Shown: positions 51,118 to 58,081 of the stretch, piece by piece
Numbering within the stretch: the stretch's first letter is position 1
How the letters are laid out: each line of letters begins with the position of its first letter
Source of the DNA: Bdellovibrio sp. qaytius
Lineage (GTDB): Bacteria; Bdellovibrionota; Bdellovibrionia; Bdellovibrionales; Bdellovibrionaceae
Reading direction: 5' to 3'
Length of the DNA: 64,000 bases
Assembly (NCBI GenBank): GCA_004011035.1
Contig: CP025734.1
Span: forward strand, 637,106 to 701,105
Made by a program: the position numbers and the translations under genes
The notes under the pieces: generated by a model
Told to the model about the DNA's origin: nothing
Seen by the model: only the letters and a program-made list of their open reading frames with translations
The model's database searches: none

Positions 51118-51744
51118 ATGGCTAAAAAAGCAACTGCATCTAAAAAAGCCACTAAACCAGTAGCTAAAGCTGCGGCAAAACCTGCGGCAAAAAAACCAGA
51201 AGCAAAAAAAGCGGCTCCAGCTGCTAAGGTTGCTCCTGTTAAAGCAAAAGCTGAACCTAAAGCTAAACCTGCAGCGAATGTTAGATCTACGAATCCACTT
51301 AATAAATTAGCTAGCGCTACAAGTGGAAAATCTGCTCCTAAGCCTAAAGTTGAAGCGGTGAAGCCGGCTTTGATGACTAAAAAAGGCAAAGTTGAAGTTG
51401 AAGAGCCGCAAGACCAAGGCGATTTGTTAATCGAAAAAGCAAAAGAAGAAATGGCAAATATCAATGCCGCTAAAAATGCTGCTGATAAAAACGCTAAAGT
51501 TAAACCAATTAAAATTGAACGTGGAAATGCTGCCGATGAAAAAGCTAAATGGCAGGAACTTTTTAAACGCCACGGAAAAGACAAAGCAGATCCTTACAAA
51601 ATGACTGATAGTTTTGACGCACTAAAGCCTCTTCAGCATAAGGTTTTGGGATGGGGATTTGTTTTAAGCAACGAGAATAATCGTCTTGAAGTTCTGTTTG
51701 AAAACGGAATAAAAATGTTGATTAGTAACTACAAGCCCTCTTAA
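51118..51744 (+). CDS. protein with histone H1-like Lys/Ala/Pro N-terminus and Tudor-like C-terminal domain
   Basis: KKATASKKATKPVAKAAAKPAAKKP...; C-terminal HKVLGWGFV...LEVLFENGIKML. Confidence 0.75.
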   Translation: MAKKATASKKATKPVAKAAAKPAAKKPEAKKAAPAAKVAPVKAKAEPKAKPAANVRSTNPLNKLASATSGKSAPKPKVEAVKPALMTKKGKVEVEEPQDQGDLLIEKAKEEMANINAAKNAADKNAKVKPIKIERGNAADEKAKWQELFKRHGKDKADPYKMTDSFDALKPLQHKVLGWGFVLSNENNRLEVLFENGIKMLISNYKPS

Positions 51745-51755
51745 TATAGTCGTGC

Positions 51756-51977
51756 ATGTCGAAAGATGATTTAGTCACGTTAGATGGAAAAGTAGTGGAT
51801 GCACTTGCTGGCGGCCTTTACAAGGTTGAGCTTGAGACAAATAAAGTTGTCATAACGGCAAAACTTTGCGGAAAAATGCGCCGATTTAATATCCGAATCG
51901 TCGTTGGCGATCGGGTGAGTGTCGGAGTTTCTCCGTACGATCCAACTCATGGTCTTATCATGTACCGTCATAAATAA
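51756..51977 (+). CDS. infA: translation initiation factor IF-1
   Basis: GKMRRFNIRIVVGDRVSVGVSPYD...GLIMYR. Confidence 0.97.
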   Translation: MSKDDLVTLDGKVVDALAGGLYKVELETNKVVITAKLCGKMRRFNIRIVVGDRVSVGVSPYDPTHGLIMYRHK

Positions 51978-52068: not shown

Positions 52069-54468
52069 ATGGATCAAATGTTAGGTCAGTATTTAACTCG
52101 TTTCGTAACTTCAGTTCCGTTAAAATCGGCAGCTGCGGTATTAGAACTAGCAGCAGAAGGCGGTACTGTTCCGTTTATCGCGCGTTACCGTAAAGAAAAA
52201 ACGGGCAATTTAGATGAAGTTCAAATTCGTGCTGTTATCGAAGCGGCTGAAACTTTTGCTGAAGTTGTAAAACGTAAAGCTTTCTTAGTAAAAGAAATTG
52301 GCGAGCAAAAGAATTTAACTCCGGAAATTGAAAAACGTATTAATCTTTCTTGGGATCTAAATGAACTAGAAGAGATCTACAAACCATTCAAGAAAAAGAA
52401 AAAAACCAAAGCTACAGTGGCGCGCGATGCTGGTTTAGAGCCACTAGCGAACTGGATTTGGGATATGGGTCACGGTCTTGCAAAAGATACGGCGACGATG
52501 GAAGTGAAAGCGAAGTCTTTCTTAAATCCAGATCAAAAAATCGTAACTTACGAAGATGCTCTTAAAGGTGCTCAAGATATTATCGTTGAGAAAATTGCCA
52601 ATGAACCATCATTACGTGAAAACGTTGTTCATAATTATTTTGAAAAAGGTAAAGTGGGCGCGAAAGCAGCTAAAGGCTTTAAACCAAATTCAAAATATGA
52701 AATGTACGCTAAAGACTACAGCGATTCAGTTAAAAATTTATTAGAAGAAAAAGCATCGCACAGATACATGGCGATGAAACGTGGTTGGGAAGAAGAAGAG
52801 TTATCAGTAGAGATTTCTGCTGAAGACGACATCTTGTTAATGATGTACGAAAAATTCGCAACAACGACTCCAGAAAATGCTTTTGGAACTTACTTAAAAG
52901 AATCAGCTCGTTTAGCTATGAATGTTTACGTAGTACCTTCAGTTAAAAATGAAGTTCACGCGAAACTTAAAGAAAAATCTGATGAACATGCGATTAAAGT
53001 ATTTGCTGAAAATGTTCGTCGCGTATTATTAGGTTCTCCGTTTGGACCACGTTGTGTGCTTGGAGTAGATCCAGGTTTACGTACGGGTTGTAAGATTGCA
53101 CTTATTGATAAAGGCGGAAACTTTGTTTCTCACACAGTGATGTACACGTTAGGTGACAACGCTGAAAACGCTGCAAAAACATTAGTGAACGAAGTGACTA
53201 AGCAAATTAAAATCGAAGCGATTGCCGTTGGTAACGGAACTGGTGGCCGCGAAACTGAAATCTTCTTGAAAAAAGTTTTAAAAGATATCGGTAAAGCTGA
53301 AATTCCAGTTGTTATGGTGAATGAATCAGGTGCCTCTGTTTACTCGGCTTCTGATGTAGCTCGTACGGAATTTCCAGATTTAGATATCACTGTAAGAGGC
53401 GCGATCTCGATCGCTCGTCGTTTACAAGATCCTTTAGCTGAGCTTGTGAAAATTGATCCAAAATCTATCGGTGTTGGTCAGTACCAACATGACGTGAATC
53501 AAACTCAACTTAAAAAAGGCCTAGAAGGCGTTGTTGAAAGTTGTGTGAATAACGTAGGTGTTGATGTGAACACAGCCTCATCTTCATTGTTATCTCACGT
53601 TTCTGGTATCGGCCCAGGTTTAGCTACAGCTATCGTTGAGCATAGAAAGAAAAACGGTCTATTCACAGAGCGTTCTGAATTATCTAAAGTTCCAAGATTT
53701 ACTCCGAAAGTATTTGAACAAGCTGCGGGTTTCTTAAGAATTTTAAATGGTAAAGTGTTTCTAGATTCTACAGGTATTCATCCTGAGCGTTACAGCGCTG
53801 TTCGTGATATGGCTCAAGATTTAAATGTAAATTTAAATGAATTAGTTGGCGAAGGCGCAAAAAAACTTGTGGCGACAAGAACTAAATGGGCAAAAATCGT
53901 TGGTGAATTTACATTCGATGATATTTACAAAGAATTAGAAAAACCAGGCCGCGATCCGCGTGATCCATATAAAGTATTTCAATTTAAAGATGATATCTTT
54001 GAAGTAAAAGATCTTAAAGAGGGAATGATTTGTCCGGGTATTGTGACAAACGTAACTAATTTCGGAGCTTTCGTTGATATCGGTGTTCACCAAGATGGTT
54101 TAGTGCATATCTCTGAACTTGCACATAAGTTCGTTGAAGATCCACGTAAAGTTGTAAACCCAGGTGATCAAGTAACTATTCGTGTATTAAAAGTTGATTT
54201 AGCAAAAAACCAAATCGCTTTATCAATGAAACTAGAAGCACCAGCTGATCATAAATCTTTCAGAGATATGAAAGAAGGAAATGCAACTGGCGGTGGACAA
54301 CGTCCTCAAGGTGATCGTGGCCCGAATCGTGGTAATGATCGTCCGCAAGGAGATCGTGGTTCTAGACCAAATCAAGGCTCATTTGGTGGTGGAAACCGCG
54401 ACCAACAGCCACGCAATGGTGGATTTTCGAATAATCCATTTGCAGCTTTGTTAACGAATAAGAAATAA
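52069..54468 (+). CDS. tex: Tex transcription accessory protein
   Basis: TVPFIARYRKEKTG, GVDPGLRTGCK, PKSIGVGQYQHD, S1 domain, RG-rich tail ending NNPFAAL. Confidence 0.96.
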   Translation: MDQMLGQYLTRFVTSVPLKSAAAVLELAAEGGTVPFIARYRKEKTGNLDEVQIRAVIEAAETFAEVVKRKAFLVKEIGEQKNLTPEIEKRINLSWDLNELEEIYKPFKKKKKTKATVARDAGLEPLANWIWDMGHGLAKDTATMEVKAKSFLNPDQKIVTYEDALKGAQDIIVEKIANEPSLRENVVHNYFEKGKVGAKAAKGFKPNSKYEMYAKDYSDSVKNLLEEKASHRYMAMKRGWEEEELSVEISAEDDILLMMYEKFATTTPENAFGTYLKESARLAMNVYVVPSVKNEVHAKLKEKSDEHAIKVFAENVRRVLLGSPFGPRCVLGVDPGLRTGCKIALIDKGGNFVSHTVMYTLGDNAENAAKTLVNEVTKQIKIEAIAVGNGTGGRETEIFLKKVLKDIGKAEIPVVMVNESGASVYSASDVARTEFPDLDITVRGAISIARRLQDPLAELVKIDPKSIGVGQYQHDVNQTQLKKGLEGVVESCVNNVGVDVNTASSSLLSHVSGIGPGLATAIVEHRKKNGLFTERSELSKVPRFTPKVFEQAAGFLRILNGKVFLDSTGIHPERYSAVRDMAQDLNVNLNELVGEGAKKLVATRTKWAKIVGEFTFDDIYKELEKPGRDPRDPYKVFQFKDDIFEVKDLKEGMICPGIVTNVTNFGAFVDIGVHQDGLVHISELAHKFVEDPRKVVNPGDQVTIRVLKVDLAKNQIALSMKLEAPADHKSFRDMKEGNATGGGQRPQGDRGPNRGNDRPQGDRGSRPNQGSFGGGNRDQQPRNGGFSNNPFAALLTNKK

Positions 54469-54531
54469 TTAATTTATTAGATATAAAAACGTGGGTTGGG
54501 ATTAACTGACCCCTAGGAAAAGGATAATATC

Positions 54532-54642
54532 ATGGCTTTAAAAGTCGGTGGCAAAAAAAAAGGTACTAAAAACAAATCAGCTCGTCACAAAGCTAAAAGA
54601 ATCACTAAGAAAAAAAGAATGATCAAAGCCAACAAAAAGTAA
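54532..54642 (+). CDS. unannotated 36-aa highly basic protein MALKVGGKKKGTKNKSARHKAKRITKKKRMIKANKK
   Basis: AGGA SD 7 nt before the ATG; codons (gct, ggt, act, cgt, atc, aac) resemble those of the ribosomal protein genes; double TAA stop. Confidence 0.75.
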   Translation: MALKVGGKKKGTKNKSARHKAKRITKKKRMIKANKK

Positions 54643-54705
54643 TAATTTTTGGTCTGACGGCACGACGCCGTCAGAAGCCTTGCCAGGAAGGTAGCTTCGA
54701 ATTTA

Positions 54706-55317
54706 ATGAAAACTAAAAATATTTTTCTTATTCGACATGGTGAAACGGATTGGAATCGTGCTAAACGATTCCAAGGCCGCACCGATATCCCCCTCAATGA
54801 GGAGGGACGTGCTCAAGCACTTGCTCTGAGTCCACGAATCGTAGAACTAAAAATCGATTTAGTTGTATCGAGTTCTTTATCGCGGGCTCATGAAACAGCC
54901 TTAATTGCGATTCAAGACATTAAACTTCCGATTCAAAAAGATGATCGTTTGCAAGAAACCAATATTGGCGAAGCAGAAGGTCTGACTCACGATGAAATCA
55001 CTGAAAAATTTGGAGTAAGCCATATCGAACGTTGGCGCTCTTATGAAGAACGTGATTTGGATTTTAGATATCCTAACGGAGAATCAAAAAGACAGATGAT
55101 GGTCCGTGTTCGCGAAGCAGTTTTAGATATCGCCCAAAACAACTCTCACCAAAATATAGCCGTGTTTGCTCATGGTATGGTTATGAGAGCTTTGACTTTT
55201 GCTTTTCAACAAGGTGTCGAGTGGGATTTGACTCAATTTCACAATGGCTCAATCCATCATTTTGTGTGGGACGACAAAAGGCCAGAACACCTAAAATACA
55301 TTGGTAAAGTGAATTAA
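54706..55317 (+). CDS. histidine phosphatase (phosphoglycerate mutase-like)
   Basis: LIRHGET, SSSLSRAHETA, ETNIG and FAHG. Confidence 0.9.
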   Translation: MKTKNIFLIRHGETDWNRAKRFQGRTDIPLNEEGRAQALALSPRIVELKIDLVVSSSLSRAHETALIAIQDIKLPIQKDDRLQETNIGEAEGLTHDEITEKFGVSHIERWRSYEERDLDFRYPNGESKRQMMVRVREAVLDIAQNNSHQNIAVFAHGMVMRALTFAFQQGVEWDLTQFHNGSIHHFVWDDKRPEHLKYIGKVN

Positions 55318-55370
55318 TAGTTTAAAATATTAGCAGGGTTCCGTCAGTGACGGACAGAAGGACTTTGTCT

Positions 55371-57191
55371 ATGCCTGCATATTTTAAAAAAGTGTTTTTT
55401 AATTCTACTGGTTCATTTTTACCAGGACCAGCAGTTAACAACGACGAAATGGATTCGTACATTGGTTCAATCAATGCACAATCTAGCCGAATCAAACGTC
55501 GTATCTTAGCTGAAAACGGGATTAAATCTCGTCACTACGGCATCGATAAAGAAGGCCAAACTACATTTTCATCTTCAGACATGGCGATCAAAGCGATCGA
55601 AAATACTTTAGAAAATACGGGCGTTAAAATGGACGACGTTAAATTTTTAAGTACAGGCACCGTGGGCGCTGATATGGCGGCTCCGGGTTTTGCGAATTTA
55701 GTACAAGGTCAGTTGCGAGCTGCTCCGATGCAAACAATGAGCTTTCAAGGGATTTGCGCTTCGGGTGTGGCCGCGATGAAAGCCGCAGCTTCAGTTGTTG
55801 AGTTAGGTGAATTTGATAAAGCCGTAGCGGTTGCGACAGAGTTTCCTTCGCGTTTATTTAAAGCTTCTCGTTTTCAACAGATCGAAGAAAATTTAGATTT
55901 CGATTCGCACTTTTTACGTTGGATGTTGTCTGACGGTTCAGGTGCTGTGTTGATGGAAAACAAACCGCGCGAGACGGGTATTTCATTAAAACTAGATTGG
56001 ATTCATTTAAAATCTTTCAGTGGTGACTATCCGACATGTATGCAAATCGGTGCCCCGTGGGGCGTCGGACAAAATAAAAGTTATTTAGATTATTCGTCAT
56101 TAGCTGAAGCTGAAAAAGCAGGTTCATTTTTACTTCGCCAAGATATTCGTTTATTACCAAATTTATTTGATGTGGGTATCAGTGAGTTTATGAATTTAGT
56201 TTTGAATAACGAAATTCAGCCGAATGAAGTGGATCATTTCTTGTGTCATTACTCGTCAGAAAGATTTTCTGGCGTTGTAAAAACATTGATGGAAAAAGCG
56301 GGCGTTTTAATCCCACCAGAGAAATGGTACAGCAATTTAACTAGCAAAGGTAACACGGGAGCTGCTTCAATTTTTATTATGCTTGATGAATTCATGCGTA
56401 CTAAAAAACCTAAAGTTGGCGAAAAAATTCTTTGTTTTATTCCTGAATCGGGCCGCTTTACGGTTTCGTTTATGCTTTTTGAAGTTTTAGAAGATGGAAA
56501 ATCTAAAAAAATTGAACGTCAAAAACCAGAGGGTCAGTTATTTGAAAAATTATTATTAGAACTGGGTGGTGTTTGGCACAATTACCGTTCTAATGTTTTC
56601 AGAACTGAATTTGCGAATAAAATTTTTAATAATAAATTTTCAGTCGAAGAATATCAAAAGTGGATGGAAAACTGGGTTCCACAGGTGCGTGAGGGTAGTA
56701 AATGGATGCGCACAGCTATCGGAAACCTATCGAGTCAGTTTGAAGGTATTCAAGAGCTTATCGAAGAACATGCTGGTGAAGAGCAATTCGACTTTAAGGT
56801 TCTTTATGCCGATTACCAGAATGCGGGCGGTACAAAAGATATCGACGATCTAAAGCGTAATGCTGGTGGTGAAGCTTTAAATAAATACATGTACGAACGT
56901 GCTAATGGCGTTAATCCCTTAGGATTATTGGGTGGTATTTTTATTATCGAAGGTACCGGAAATAAAATTATTCCGACGATGTTACCTTTCTTAAAGAAAA
57001 GTTTAAATTTACAGATGAATGTTTTTAAGTTCTTAGAGTATCACGGTGAAAATGACGTGAAACATTTAGAGCGTTGGGCCAATGCTGTTGAATTAGCTTT
57101 AACAATAGAGCCTAAGGCTTATGACGACATCTTAGCTACAGCAAAAGAAGTGGCAAGGCTTTATCATGCACAATGGGAGCAAGTACTATGA
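55371..57191 (+). CDS. DarB/StlD-like beta-ketoacyl synthase III fused to a heme-oxygenase-like diiron domain
   Basis: KAS III triad in GICASG, LCHYSS and KGNTGAAS; C-terminal about 230 aa helical domain with QVREG, HAGEE, FIIEG and YHGENDVKH; AAGGA RBS before ATG 55371. Confidence 0.85.
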   Translation: MPAYFKKVFFNSTGSFLPGPAVNNDEMDSYIGSINAQSSRIKRRILAENGIKSRHYGIDKEGQTTFSSSDMAIKAIENTLENTGVKMDDVKFLSTGTVGADMAAPGFANLVQGQLRAAPMQTMSFQGICASGVAAMKAAASVVELGEFDKAVAVATEFPSRLFKASRFQQIEENLDFDSHFLRWMLSDGSGAVLMENKPRETGISLKLDWIHLKSFSGDYPTCMQIGAPWGVGQNKSYLDYSSLAEAEKAGSFLLRQDIRLLPNLFDVGISEFMNLVLNNEIQPNEVDHFLCHYSSERFSGVVKTLMEKAGVLIPPEKWYSNLTSKGNTGAASIFIMLDEFMRTKKPKVGEKILCFIPESGRFTVSFMLFEVLEDGKSKKIERQKPEGQLFEKLLLELGGVWHNYRSNVFRTEFANKIFNNKFSVEEYQKWMENWVPQVREGSKWMRTAIGNLSSQFEGIQELIEEHAGEEQFDFKVLYADYQNAGGTKDIDDLKRNAGGEALNKYMYERANGVNPLGLLGGIFIIEGTGNKIIPTMLPFLKKSLNLQMNVFKFLEYHGENDVKHLERWANAVELALTIEPKAYDDILATAKEVARLYHAQWEQVL

Positions 57192-58081
57192 TGAACCCGA
57201 ACGACATGTTTGCAAATATGCAGCATGACCCGGACGATCCAAGTCCATGGCATGCAATGTATTTAGATCAAAGCACTCCGCTTCGCCCATCTACAAAAAC
57301 GATGTGGCTTACGAATTCAAGCTCTGCTTCAAGACAGTTCGTTCTGCCGTTCGCTAGATTTTTTGCTAAAATTTTGATTATCTTTTTTCAAATTATTAAG
57401 GCTTTGTCGCCGATTGACTGGCGCGCGTCTCGTTTATTGCATCAGTTGATTTACTGGGGTTTAAAATACTTTGTAAAAGCTGAAGCTAATTATCTTATTT
57501 TGCGCCACTTCTGGGCGGGTTCAGAAATTTTAGGATTTATCGGCGGCAATGTGCCCGGAACAAATGTGCCGATGAATCCGTTAAAGCCAAAAAATCTTGA
57601 AGCTTTGAAAGATCATTTGTTTTTAACTCATGACCTGAACTTATTTAATTTCGTGATCAATTTAAATCGTGAACTTAAAGAGAAAAACTTAAAAATTAAA
57701 CCGATTGCAGAACCTAATTTTGCCATGGTCACTGAGGGTGAGTTTGATATTGAAATGCCTAAAGACGGCTTGTTTAATTTTATCGATTTAGAAACAGCTA
57801 TTGAGATTTATACTCCGGTGTTTCAGTTTTTCTTAACCGATAATGATTTCTGGCGCGCGACGAATTCGTTGCAGTTAGATGAAACCATCGGAATTTATGC
57901 AGCGACAATTTTAAGTTCGCAGCAGCATTTGGTTTTAGTGAATAATAAACATCCTTTGGTTAATTTAATCACTTTAAGCGCGGGGTTTCGTTTAGTGCTA
58001 CATGGTTTGTCGACAGAGATGGGCCATTGGTTATTAGTGCAAAAGAAACTTGAGCAGCGCGAACGTACAAAAACGGCGTAA
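57188..58081 (+). CDS. conserved unknown protein (DUF6999-like, from memory) coupled to the KS gene
   Basis: ATGA overlap with the KS stop; HDPDDPSPW..YLDQS.P, ANYLILRHF and SLQLDE. Confidence 0.7.
   Translation: MMNPNDMFANMQHDPDDPSPWHAMYLDQSTPLRPSTKTMWLTNSSSASRQFVLPFARFFAKILIIFFQIIKALSPIDWRASRLLHQLIYWGLKYFVKAEANYLILRHFWAGSEILGFIGGNVPGTNVPMNPLKPKNLEALKDHLFLTHDLNLFNFVINLNRELKEKNLKIKPIAEPNFAMVTEGEFDIEMPKDGLFNFIDLETAIEIYTPVFQFFLTDNDFWRATNSLQLDETIGIYAATILSSQQHLVLVNNKHPLVNLITLSAGFRLVLHGLSTEMGHWLLVQKKLEQRERTKTA

Follow-up and report, generated by a model that had tools for sequence, protein, structure and literature searches.

A polycationic reading frame behind tex

We describe a short gene in a window of 64,000 nucleotides of Bdellovibrio sp. 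qaytius DNA (assembly GCA_004011035.1, contig CP025734.1, forward-strand positions 637,106 to 701,105), whose product is an extremely basic micro-protein; unless stated otherwise, positions refer to this window, i.e. to the whole stretch of DNA that was analysed. The open reading frame (ORF) occupies positions 54532 to 54642 of the + strand including its stop codon and is placed between tex (52069–54468, +) and a gene for a histidine phosphatase (54706–55317, +). It comprises 36 codons, starts with ATG, ends with TAA and encodes MALKVGGKKKGTKNKSARHKAKRITKKKRMIKANKK, a peptide of 36 amino acids with a calculated isoelectric point (pI) of about 12 and a mass of 4092 Da. Since an in-frame TAG is found five codons 5' of the ATG, this ATG is the sole possible start. 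The frame had been pointed out in an earlier note, made from the sequence alone, as coding for an unannotated protamine-like or ribosomal-like protein with 14 Lys, 3 Arg and no acidic residue; a recount finds it exactly as given there, with neither Asp nor Glu and with a combined Lys and Arg content of 47%. The assignment as a gene builds on the ORF itself, its conservation, its homologues and the transcription of the homologue in B. bacteriovorus HD100.

The ATG is preceded at a distance of 7 nt by the Shine-Dalgarno sequence AAGGA (54520–54524, +), at the same spacing as the AGGAG or AAGGAG of orthologues. Throughout the genus the orthologues start with ATG or GTG, and AGGAG, AAGGAG or GGGAG lies ahead of each. 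The Shine-Dalgarno sequence, called good in the earlier note, is adequate in this genome, although most relatives possess the stronger AGGAG or AAGGAG. Codon choice was evaluated by comparing the usage of 29 ribosomal-protein and elongation-factor genes of this genome with the genome average. The small gene is typical under the usage of that cluster and shows a log-likelihood ratio of +2.27 towards it, a value which only 1.9% of simulations at genome-average codon usage attain. The claim that its codons are like those of ribosomal-protein genes thus receives weak support (p about 0.02), and in a gene of 36 codons such a codon choice is modest evidence.

According to an AlphaFold2 (AF2) model calculated with the family alignment, residues 1–14 of MALKVGGKKKGTKNKSARHKAKRITKKKRMIKANKK adopt a coil and residues 15–35 a single helix (pLDDT, the per-residue model confidence, 91–97; mean over the peptide 80). 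Along the predicted helix a narrow ridge of small and hydrophobic residues is formed by A17, A21, I24 and I31; overall, only about a quarter of the residues are hydrophobic. AKKA, SPKK or AT-hook repeats are not found in the peptide. Searches in Pfam-A returned no match for the window protein or for 19 family members, neither NCBIfam (including ribo_bS22) nor Rfam held a match for the ORF or the region around it, a profile search of PDB sequences at E ≤ 10 gave no match for the family, and neither did Foldseek with the AF2 model of MALKVGGKKKGTKNKSARHKAKRITKKKRMIKANKK.

Conservation, selection and distribution

The frame is a genuine gene and more than a product of chance, because it is conserved and under purifying selection. 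The earlier note had made its proposal depend on frame conservation in relatives, and a six-frame search of 24 further genomes from the genus finds it intact in 21; the remaining ones, which lack a match, are three genomes with a completeness of 64–89%. Among 26 orthologues, 21, 20 and 34 of 37 sites are variable at codon positions 1, 2 and 3, respectively, and the mean proportions of synonymous (pS) and non-synonymous (pN) differences are 0.68 and 0.18 (pN/pS 0.27). The invariant Ser16 is encoded by TCA, TCG, TCT, AGT and AGC, i.e. by both the TCN and the AGY family, and Arg23 by AGA, CGT, CGC and CGA. This pattern of substitution reflects selection at the protein level; neither an RNA nor the opposite strand is what is being conserved. 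The suspicion of the earlier note, that annotation had passed over a gene for a tiny basic protein which binds nucleic acids, finds strong support in the conserved frame and the purifying selection.

Seventeen alignment columns are invariant over 18 sequences of the genus, several of them non-basic, and the positions conserved beyond Lys and Arg are G6, G7, N14, S16, A17, H19 and A33. An order-wide alignment of 31 sequences yields the 31-residue consensus MAKKKKRNKSARHKAKRILKKKRMIKAKKKK, whose most constant part is the core KR[IL]xKKK[RK]M. Family members have 27–41 residues and are encoded by one copy per genome. The comparison with protamines made in the earlier note is consequently a poor one: the protein is rich in Lys and carries many conserved residues at specific positions, and is not an Arg-rich protein of low complexity.

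All 18 Bdellovibrio genomes tested match the profile built from the genus, and at the Bdellovibrio loci that were read a homologue of 30–31 residues follows directly after tex, for example MAAKGKSRKGIRHRKKRILTKKRMYKAKIRK behind a strong AAGGAG. For a survey of the Bdellovibrionaceae, 40 genera were sampled with one genome per genus; a recognisable copy is present in about 25 of them, in many cases after tex, usually at a distance of 9–60 nt, and in some elsewhere. Members were also detected in two further families of the order, for example MAKKKKKKKSNRLHAKRILKKKRMIKAKQRSKK, the neighbour of which is a corA-like gene, as judged from its N-terminal sequence alone. The neighbouring genus with B. 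bacteriovorus strain W, HD100 and 109J has homologues that are all recorded as 'hypothetical protein' (HD100 Bd0955, CAE78894.1, Q6MPA4; strain W BDW_03270; 109J Bb109J_c0866). A search with a hidden Markov model (HMM) in 1.84 billion representative proteins gave four matches, all of them obvious family members; with so few matches, the family must be either narrow or mostly uncalled. MALKVGGKKKGTKNKSARHKAKRITKKKRMIKANKK itself is missing from a collection of 15 billion proteins, in which Bdellovibrio versions are present. Hence, 'unannotated' is correct for the protein set of this genome but not for B. bacteriovorus, and the family, known before only through anonymous 'hypothetical' entries, has never been named or studied.

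Expression of the HD100 homologue

Expression of the homologue was taken from Table S1 of Karunker et al. 2013 (PMC3627812), which compares HD100 in attack phase and growth phase (GP3). Bd0955, the small-protein gene (NC_005363 901490–901585), has a value of 0 reads per kilobase per million (RPKM) in attack phase and of 1128 in GP3 (107 reads). The corresponding values are 1.9 and 1097 for Bd0954 (Tex), 2.8 and 3185 for Bd0953 (IF-1), and 0 and 11 for Bd0956, the next gene downstream (PMC3627812). The HD100 small gene is therefore transcribed and, because its RPKM equals that of tex and drops to only 11 for Bd0956, its transcription almost certainly takes place on the tex message, which ends after Bd0955. 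Like IF-1 and the ribosomal proteins, Bd0955 is growth-phase specific; so are most genes in the stretches of the table that were read.

At the protein level, a quantitative HD100 proteome of 2025 lists Tex and Bd0956 but not Q6MPA4. This is to be expected, given that the longest tryptic peptide of the window protein comprises only four residues. In a study of the Borrelia ribosome, the small ribosomal protein bS22 was likewise missed by mass spectrometry (PMC10618245).

Gene neighbourhood

The upstream neighbour tex encodes a protein of 799 residues with Tex_N, Tex_YqgF, HHH_3 and S1 domains (E down to 1.8e-45), and is itself preceded by infA (51756–51977, +), coding for IF-1 with an eIF-1a domain. 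The downstream neighbour within the genus is the histidine phosphatase gene (His_Phos_1, E 2.3e-52). At the genus loci the small gene is always flanked by the end of tex (...NNPFAALL..KK*) on one side and by the phosphatase gene on the other; the latter begins shortly 3' of it, with its conserved (R)HGET motif 28–90 nt past the stop codon of the small gene at all of these loci. The conserved block of which infA is a part runs from an lpxD-like gene through the gene of a K/A/P-rich protein, infA and tex to the small gene. On a metagenome contig (L067) it reads lpxD-like gene, gene of an unknown protein, infA, tex, small gene, His_Phos_1, and up to the small gene the HD100 block Bd0950–Bd0955 has the same order, infA, tex and the small gene being Bd0953–Bd0955. 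In most genera 9–84 nt separate the end of tex from the small gene, and the adjacency to tex is kept while the downstream gene differs between genera. The small gene is probably a co-transcript of tex.

Several further features of the neighbourhood were observed. Eleven nucleotides before infA, positions 51118–51744 (+) encode a protein of 208 residues, of which about 90 N-terminal residues are almost all Lys, Ala or Pro in the manner of histone H1, while its C-terminal globular part has no Pfam match. Its slot is filled in HD100 by Bd0952 ('hypothetical', GP3 RPKM 301) and on the metagenome contig by a protein of 176 residues without Pfam match. The Tex protein possesses a tail of about 78 residues beyond the S1 domain (54235–54468), rich in Gly, Arg, Gln, Asn and Pro (GDRGPNRGNDRPQGDRG...), which terminates in the motif NNPFAALL(x)2-8KK, conserved family-wide. 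The infA gene before tex lies outside the spc/alpha ribosomal-protein cluster, which is found at about 2.54 Mb of this genome and in which adk is followed by rpsM with a gap of only about 290 nt for rpmJ. Beyond the phosphatase gene, positions 55347–58081 encode a KAS III-like ketosynthase fused to a haem-oxygenase-like domain (Haem_oxygenas_2); next to it, overlapping its end, lies the gene of a DUF6999 protein (E 4e-119), and the two together look like the start of a biosynthetic operon. Outside the window, the same genome contains another tiny basic ORF (G000:C1:3247030-3247113, +) behind AAGGAG, coding for MAKKKAKKATKKAAKKTTKKATKKKKK, 27 residues with 59% Lys and Arg, which is AKK/TKK repeat-like and in this respect unlike MALKVGGKKKGTKNKSARHKAKRITKKKRMIKANKK.

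Flanking hairpins

The earlier note had placed a hairpin on each side of the small gene, and both are present. Between the tex stop codon and the Shine-Dalgarno sequence, folding and comparison with relatives locate a stem-loop of 7 bp (54493–54512, +) with GGGTTGG (54493–54499) pairing with CTGACCC (54506–54512) through seven pairs including two G-U. Taken alone it is unexceptional, being no better than shuffled sequences (z −0.78), and it is kept only in the four closest relatives (L005, L007, L008, L023), which have a hairpin at the same place with a different stem sequence, for instance GACCGG/CCGGTC or GAGCTGAG/CTCGGCTC. Since hairpins of different stem sequence are located at the same place, a structure conserved within this subclade is suggested, and the 5' hairpin is probably real there and there only. 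In the rest of the genus the gap between tex and the small gene is only 9–43 nt and holds no hairpin; one genus member has a terminator-like hairpin with a T-run at this position. The 5' structure may serve as a partial terminator of tex, or else for processing or stabilisation.

On the other side, between the small gene and the phosphatase gene, a perfect GC-rich stem-loop of 9 bp is found (54653–54675, +), with TCTGACGGC (54653–54661) pairing with GCCGTCAGA (54667–54675) across a loop of 5 nt. With an energy of −16 to −22 kcal/mol it exceeds shuffled sequences (z −2.9), but it is restricted to this genome, as it was seen in none of the relatives examined, the closest ones included. No T-run follows it and a terminator scan found nothing; a recent insertion or a strain-specific attenuator are candidate origins. 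As conserved parts of the small gene both hairpins were rejected, neither being kept across the genus.

A candidate ribosomal protein

In its anatomy, as far as composition and predicted fold reveal it, the peptide is of the kind of the tiny proteins embedded in ribosomal RNA (rRNA), namely bS22, eL41, bL34, bL36 and bTHX. The most instructive of these is bS22 (PF08213, COX24_C/DUF1713; NF047430, ribo_bS22), which is seen in PDB entries 5O5J and 7JIL (chain 5) and 8FMW (chain V), has mS38 as mitochondrial counterpart and occurs in ribosomes of Mycobacterium, Cutibacterium, Flavobacterium, Porphyromonas and Borrelia. Its site is buried between h2, h27, h44 and h45 of the 16S rRNA and touches H68 of the 23S rRNA. 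The Borrelia ribosome paper treats bS22, mS38 and eL41 as analogues in one rRNA pocket (PMC10618245).

Because the gene is single-copy, widespread in the family, expressed in growth phase together with translation genes and similar to ribosomal-protein genes in its codons, we put the chance that the small protein is ribosome-bound at about even; roughly half of that share would fall to an occupation of the bS22/eL41 pocket. The peptide, with a flexible N-terminus rich in Gly and Lys followed by a single predicted basic helix of about 21 residues, would usually be co-transcribed with tex and made during growth. In its most likely role it would insert into a pocket of folded rRNA as a supernumerary ribosomal protein specific to a lineage, i.e. 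to the Bdellovibrionaceae and some other Bdellovibrionales. There it would neutralise phosphate charge, in the way known from bS22, mS38 and eL41 in the h44/h45 region of the small subunit, and it could be a bS22 that has diverged past the reach of curated models. Both the binding to rRNA and its location are inferred. A defined binding site is favoured over bulk charge because specific non-basic positions are conserved. The fuller proposal, that the Bdellovibrionaceae and some other Bdellovibrionales have a ribosomal protein family of their own, either new or a diverged bS22, whose synthesis from the tex transcript would be confined to intracellular growth, is tentative, and we place it a little below even.

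A considerable number of results weigh against this proposal. The gene context is uninformative, as the gene adjoins tex and not a ribosomal-protein operon. In growth phase the mRNA of Bd0955 is 2.5–10 times below that of canonical ribosomal-protein genes, the RPKM of which ranges from 2861 (S21) to 11494 (L35) (PMC3627812). Some genera of the family are without a detectable copy in the one-genome-per-genus sample. A small ribosomal protein that was lost and had to be replaced was looked for and this explanation rejected, none being missing from the genome: bL27, bL28, bL31–bL36, bS18, bS20, bS21 and uS14 are all encoded elsewhere in it, as determined with E. coli query sequences validated by their matches. 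The literature searched contained no ribosome structure and no ribosome mass-spectrometry data for Bdellovibrionota. Searches with bS22 models belong to the same side: PF08213 gives no match at E ≤ 10 and NF047430 no match in this genome, and neither exceeds its cut-off in any of 41 genomes that represent 40 of the family's genera. hhalign against bS22 returns a probability below 1%, and a home-made bS22 HMM run on the six-frame ORFs of the genome finds nothing significant, with the small ORF nowhere near the top. Finally, the permutation p values for a resemblance to bS22, given below, are no better than that of the bS20 control and would fail a correction for about ten comparisons.

Searches with the two curated models can succeed, both exceeding their cut-off in one of 14 control genomes, and within this phylum PF08213 does so on a canonical bS22, MGSVVKKRRKKMAKHKRRMWRRRNRAKLKR, which belongs to another family. 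In favour of the ribosomal reading, the niche of bS22 appears vacant in the Bdellovibrionaceae, to judge from the absence of canonical bS22 from the 41 sampled genomes. The bS22 of that other family is of the Mycobacterium type; it is encoded at locus positions 1501–1590 of L057, L058 and L059, in genomes of 1.6–1.8 Mb, and bridges the Mycobacterium and Flavobacterium types of bS22 (permutation z 8.0 and 5.1). The gene is not beside tex, and positional orthology between it and the small gene was accordingly rejected.

As to a direct relationship, pairwise shuffle tests that preserve composition give z values of −1 to 2.2 between the small protein and bS22. Flavobacterium and Mycobacterium bS22, a true pair, reach a z of only 0.9, so that the test is powerless at such length and composition. 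A column-permutation test on profiles finds one register for all three bS22 subtypes, in which His19 falls on the bS22 His and K10, K20 and R29 on the three invariant bS22 columns. Hereby p is 0.013 with 19 sequences and 0.06 with 31, compared to 0.04 for the positive control (Flavobacterium against Mycobacterium bS22) and 0.03 for the negative control (bS20). With controls of this kind the test has too little power for a decision; homology of the small protein to bS22 is no more than possible, and we do not assign the protein to bS22. The same kind of permutation test against bL34, bL36 and eL41 gives p values of 0.10–0.71. The protein matches neither a Pfam model nor a sequence of bTHX, eL41, bL34 or bL36; the full Pfam-A scan was empty, and for bL34 and bL36 the genome has separate genes. 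A ribosome-rescue factor similar to ArfA was considered and rejected: the phylum already has transfer-messenger RNA (tmRNA)/SmpB, ArfB and RqcH, the ORF contains no non-stop-mRNA hairpin, and its product is very short.

If the small protein is ribosome-bound, the growth-phase ribosomes of the predator would not have the same composition as prey ribosomes, and a predator under development as a 'living antibiotic' would possess a ribosome component specific to its clade. This would also add to an emerging picture in which fast-evolving micro-proteins occupy the h44/h45 pocket in many more phyla than is evident from annotation. The bS22 of mycobacteria is reported to affect the access of aminoglycosides to their h44 site (bioRxiv 10.1101/2023.03.31.535098). 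Should the protein instead bind DNA or work with Tex, a clade whose chromatin is unusual would have a bacterial micro-protein of a new kind. With the gene missing from the protein set of this genome and 'hypothetical' in HD100 (Bd0955), a named and testable candidate is useful in either case.

Alternative explanations

The protein could, first, be a nucleoid-associated polycation that, like an H1 tail, Hc1/Hc2 or a protamine, binds DNA non-specifically and helps to compact the very dense chromosome of Bdellovibrio. Its extreme positive charge without any acidic residue would fit this role, as would its occurrence in a clade known for its compacted nucleoid and for chromatin proteins out of the ordinary, among them the histone Bd0055, the RNA of which is also growth-phase specific, and the presence of the K/A/P-rich, H1-like protein two genes upstream. 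However, the peptide is rich in Lys and not in Arg, it is devoid of the AKKA, SPKK and AT-hook repeats, and its conservation is position-specific, with S16 retained in both Ser codon families alongside G6-G7, N14, A17 and the KR[IL]xKKK[RK]M core. DNA condensers that act by charge only drift in sequence while their composition stays. Recent chromosome studies do not list the protein among the nucleoid-associated proteins of Bdellovibrio, which is weak evidence. We therefore regard a function in DNA compaction as unlikely, while leaving it a real share.

Alternatively, the peptide might act in transcription-coupled RNA handling, as a cofactor linked to Tex or as a general RNA-binding cofactor or free RNA chaperone, without being a stable component of the ribosome. 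This is suggested by the position of the gene 9–84 nt after tex, which is found in the genus, in every Bdellovibrio genome that was examined and in numerous further genera, by the equal mRNA levels of Bd0954 and Bd0955, by an adjacency that outlasts changes of the downstream gene, and by the S1 and HhH nucleic-acid-binding domains of Tex. Yet several genera and families have retained the peptide without retaining its place next to tex: in one family (f2) the gene lies beside the corA-like gene, and at other loci no tex is nearby. Moreover, Tex is nearly universal in bacteria and the peptide is not. We know of no Tex partner of such a kind, and consider this role slightly less likely than the preceding one.

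A frame without a protein function, serving as a leader or upstream ORF that regulates the downstream gene, or as part of the tex 3' untranslated region, possibly through the flanking hairpins, would be in keeping with its shortness, its place between two genes and the hairpins on both sides in this genome, but it is the amino acids and not the nucleotides that are conserved, a substitution pattern which largely refutes it, and with a downstream gene that varies between genera, hairpins that are not conserved and no Rfam match, the chance of it is very slim. A role in predation, as a cationic antimicrobial or a membrane-active agent, is conceivable for a cationic, predicted helical peptide of a predatory organism but just as hard to credit, given that the protein has no signal peptide, that its hydrophobic residues, about a quarter of the total, are confined to a narrow ridge, and that its gene is silent in the attack phase, when prey is first met.

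Comparison with known small basic proteins

Chlamydia Hc1/Hc2 and the KAP-rich tails of AlgP type share with the small protein a polycationic character and the lack of acidic residues. They are, however, much longer, repetitive and of low complexity, whereas the small protein is without repeats and shows position-specific conservation.

The likeness to bTHX of Thermus, bL37 of mycobacteria and bL38 of Bacteroidia and Borrelia is one of concept, these being small, basic, clade-restricted proteins that were found only through structures. Pfam and PDB searches reveal no sequence relation to any of them, and bL38 is larger and contains beta structure. Closer in architecture is eL41, a protein of 25 residues from eukaryotes and archaea, which consists, like the predicted fold of the small protein, of a single basic helix of about 21–24 residues and has a KKRM-like motif. 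It belongs to another domain of life, though, and shows no similarity after correction for composition.

Within its own family, the window protein is best compared with Bd0955/Q6MPA4 of HD100, to which it is 57% identical over 30 aligned residues and with which it shares the place after tex (Bd0954) and the conserved core. Bd0955, with 52% Lys and Arg and without Asp or Glu, differs in having 31 residues, in lacking the MALKVGG-type N-terminal extension of the genus of the window, and in its downstream gene.

Compared to bS22, the window protein has a lower content of Lys and Arg (47%) than the solved chains of Mycobacterium, Flavobacterium and Borrelia (30–33 residues, 55–57% Lys and Arg, pI 12) and prefers Lys over Arg, and the KR[IL]xKKK[RK]M core of its family is absent from bS22. 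The AF2 model, calculated for the isolated peptide and hence unable to show a fold induced by RNA, displays one helix after a coil instead of the helix-bend-helix of bS22. On the other hand, both are about 30 residues long (31 in the family consensus), have a pI of about 12 and no acidic residue, are helical (in our case by prediction) and carry a central A-x-H-K. Both are encoded by single-copy genes outside the ribosomal-protein operons, are often unannotated and escape tryptic mass spectrometry, as has been described for bS22 genes in general and for that of Borrelia in particular, which was unannotated until density in cryo-electron microscopy prompted a search for it (PMC10618245).

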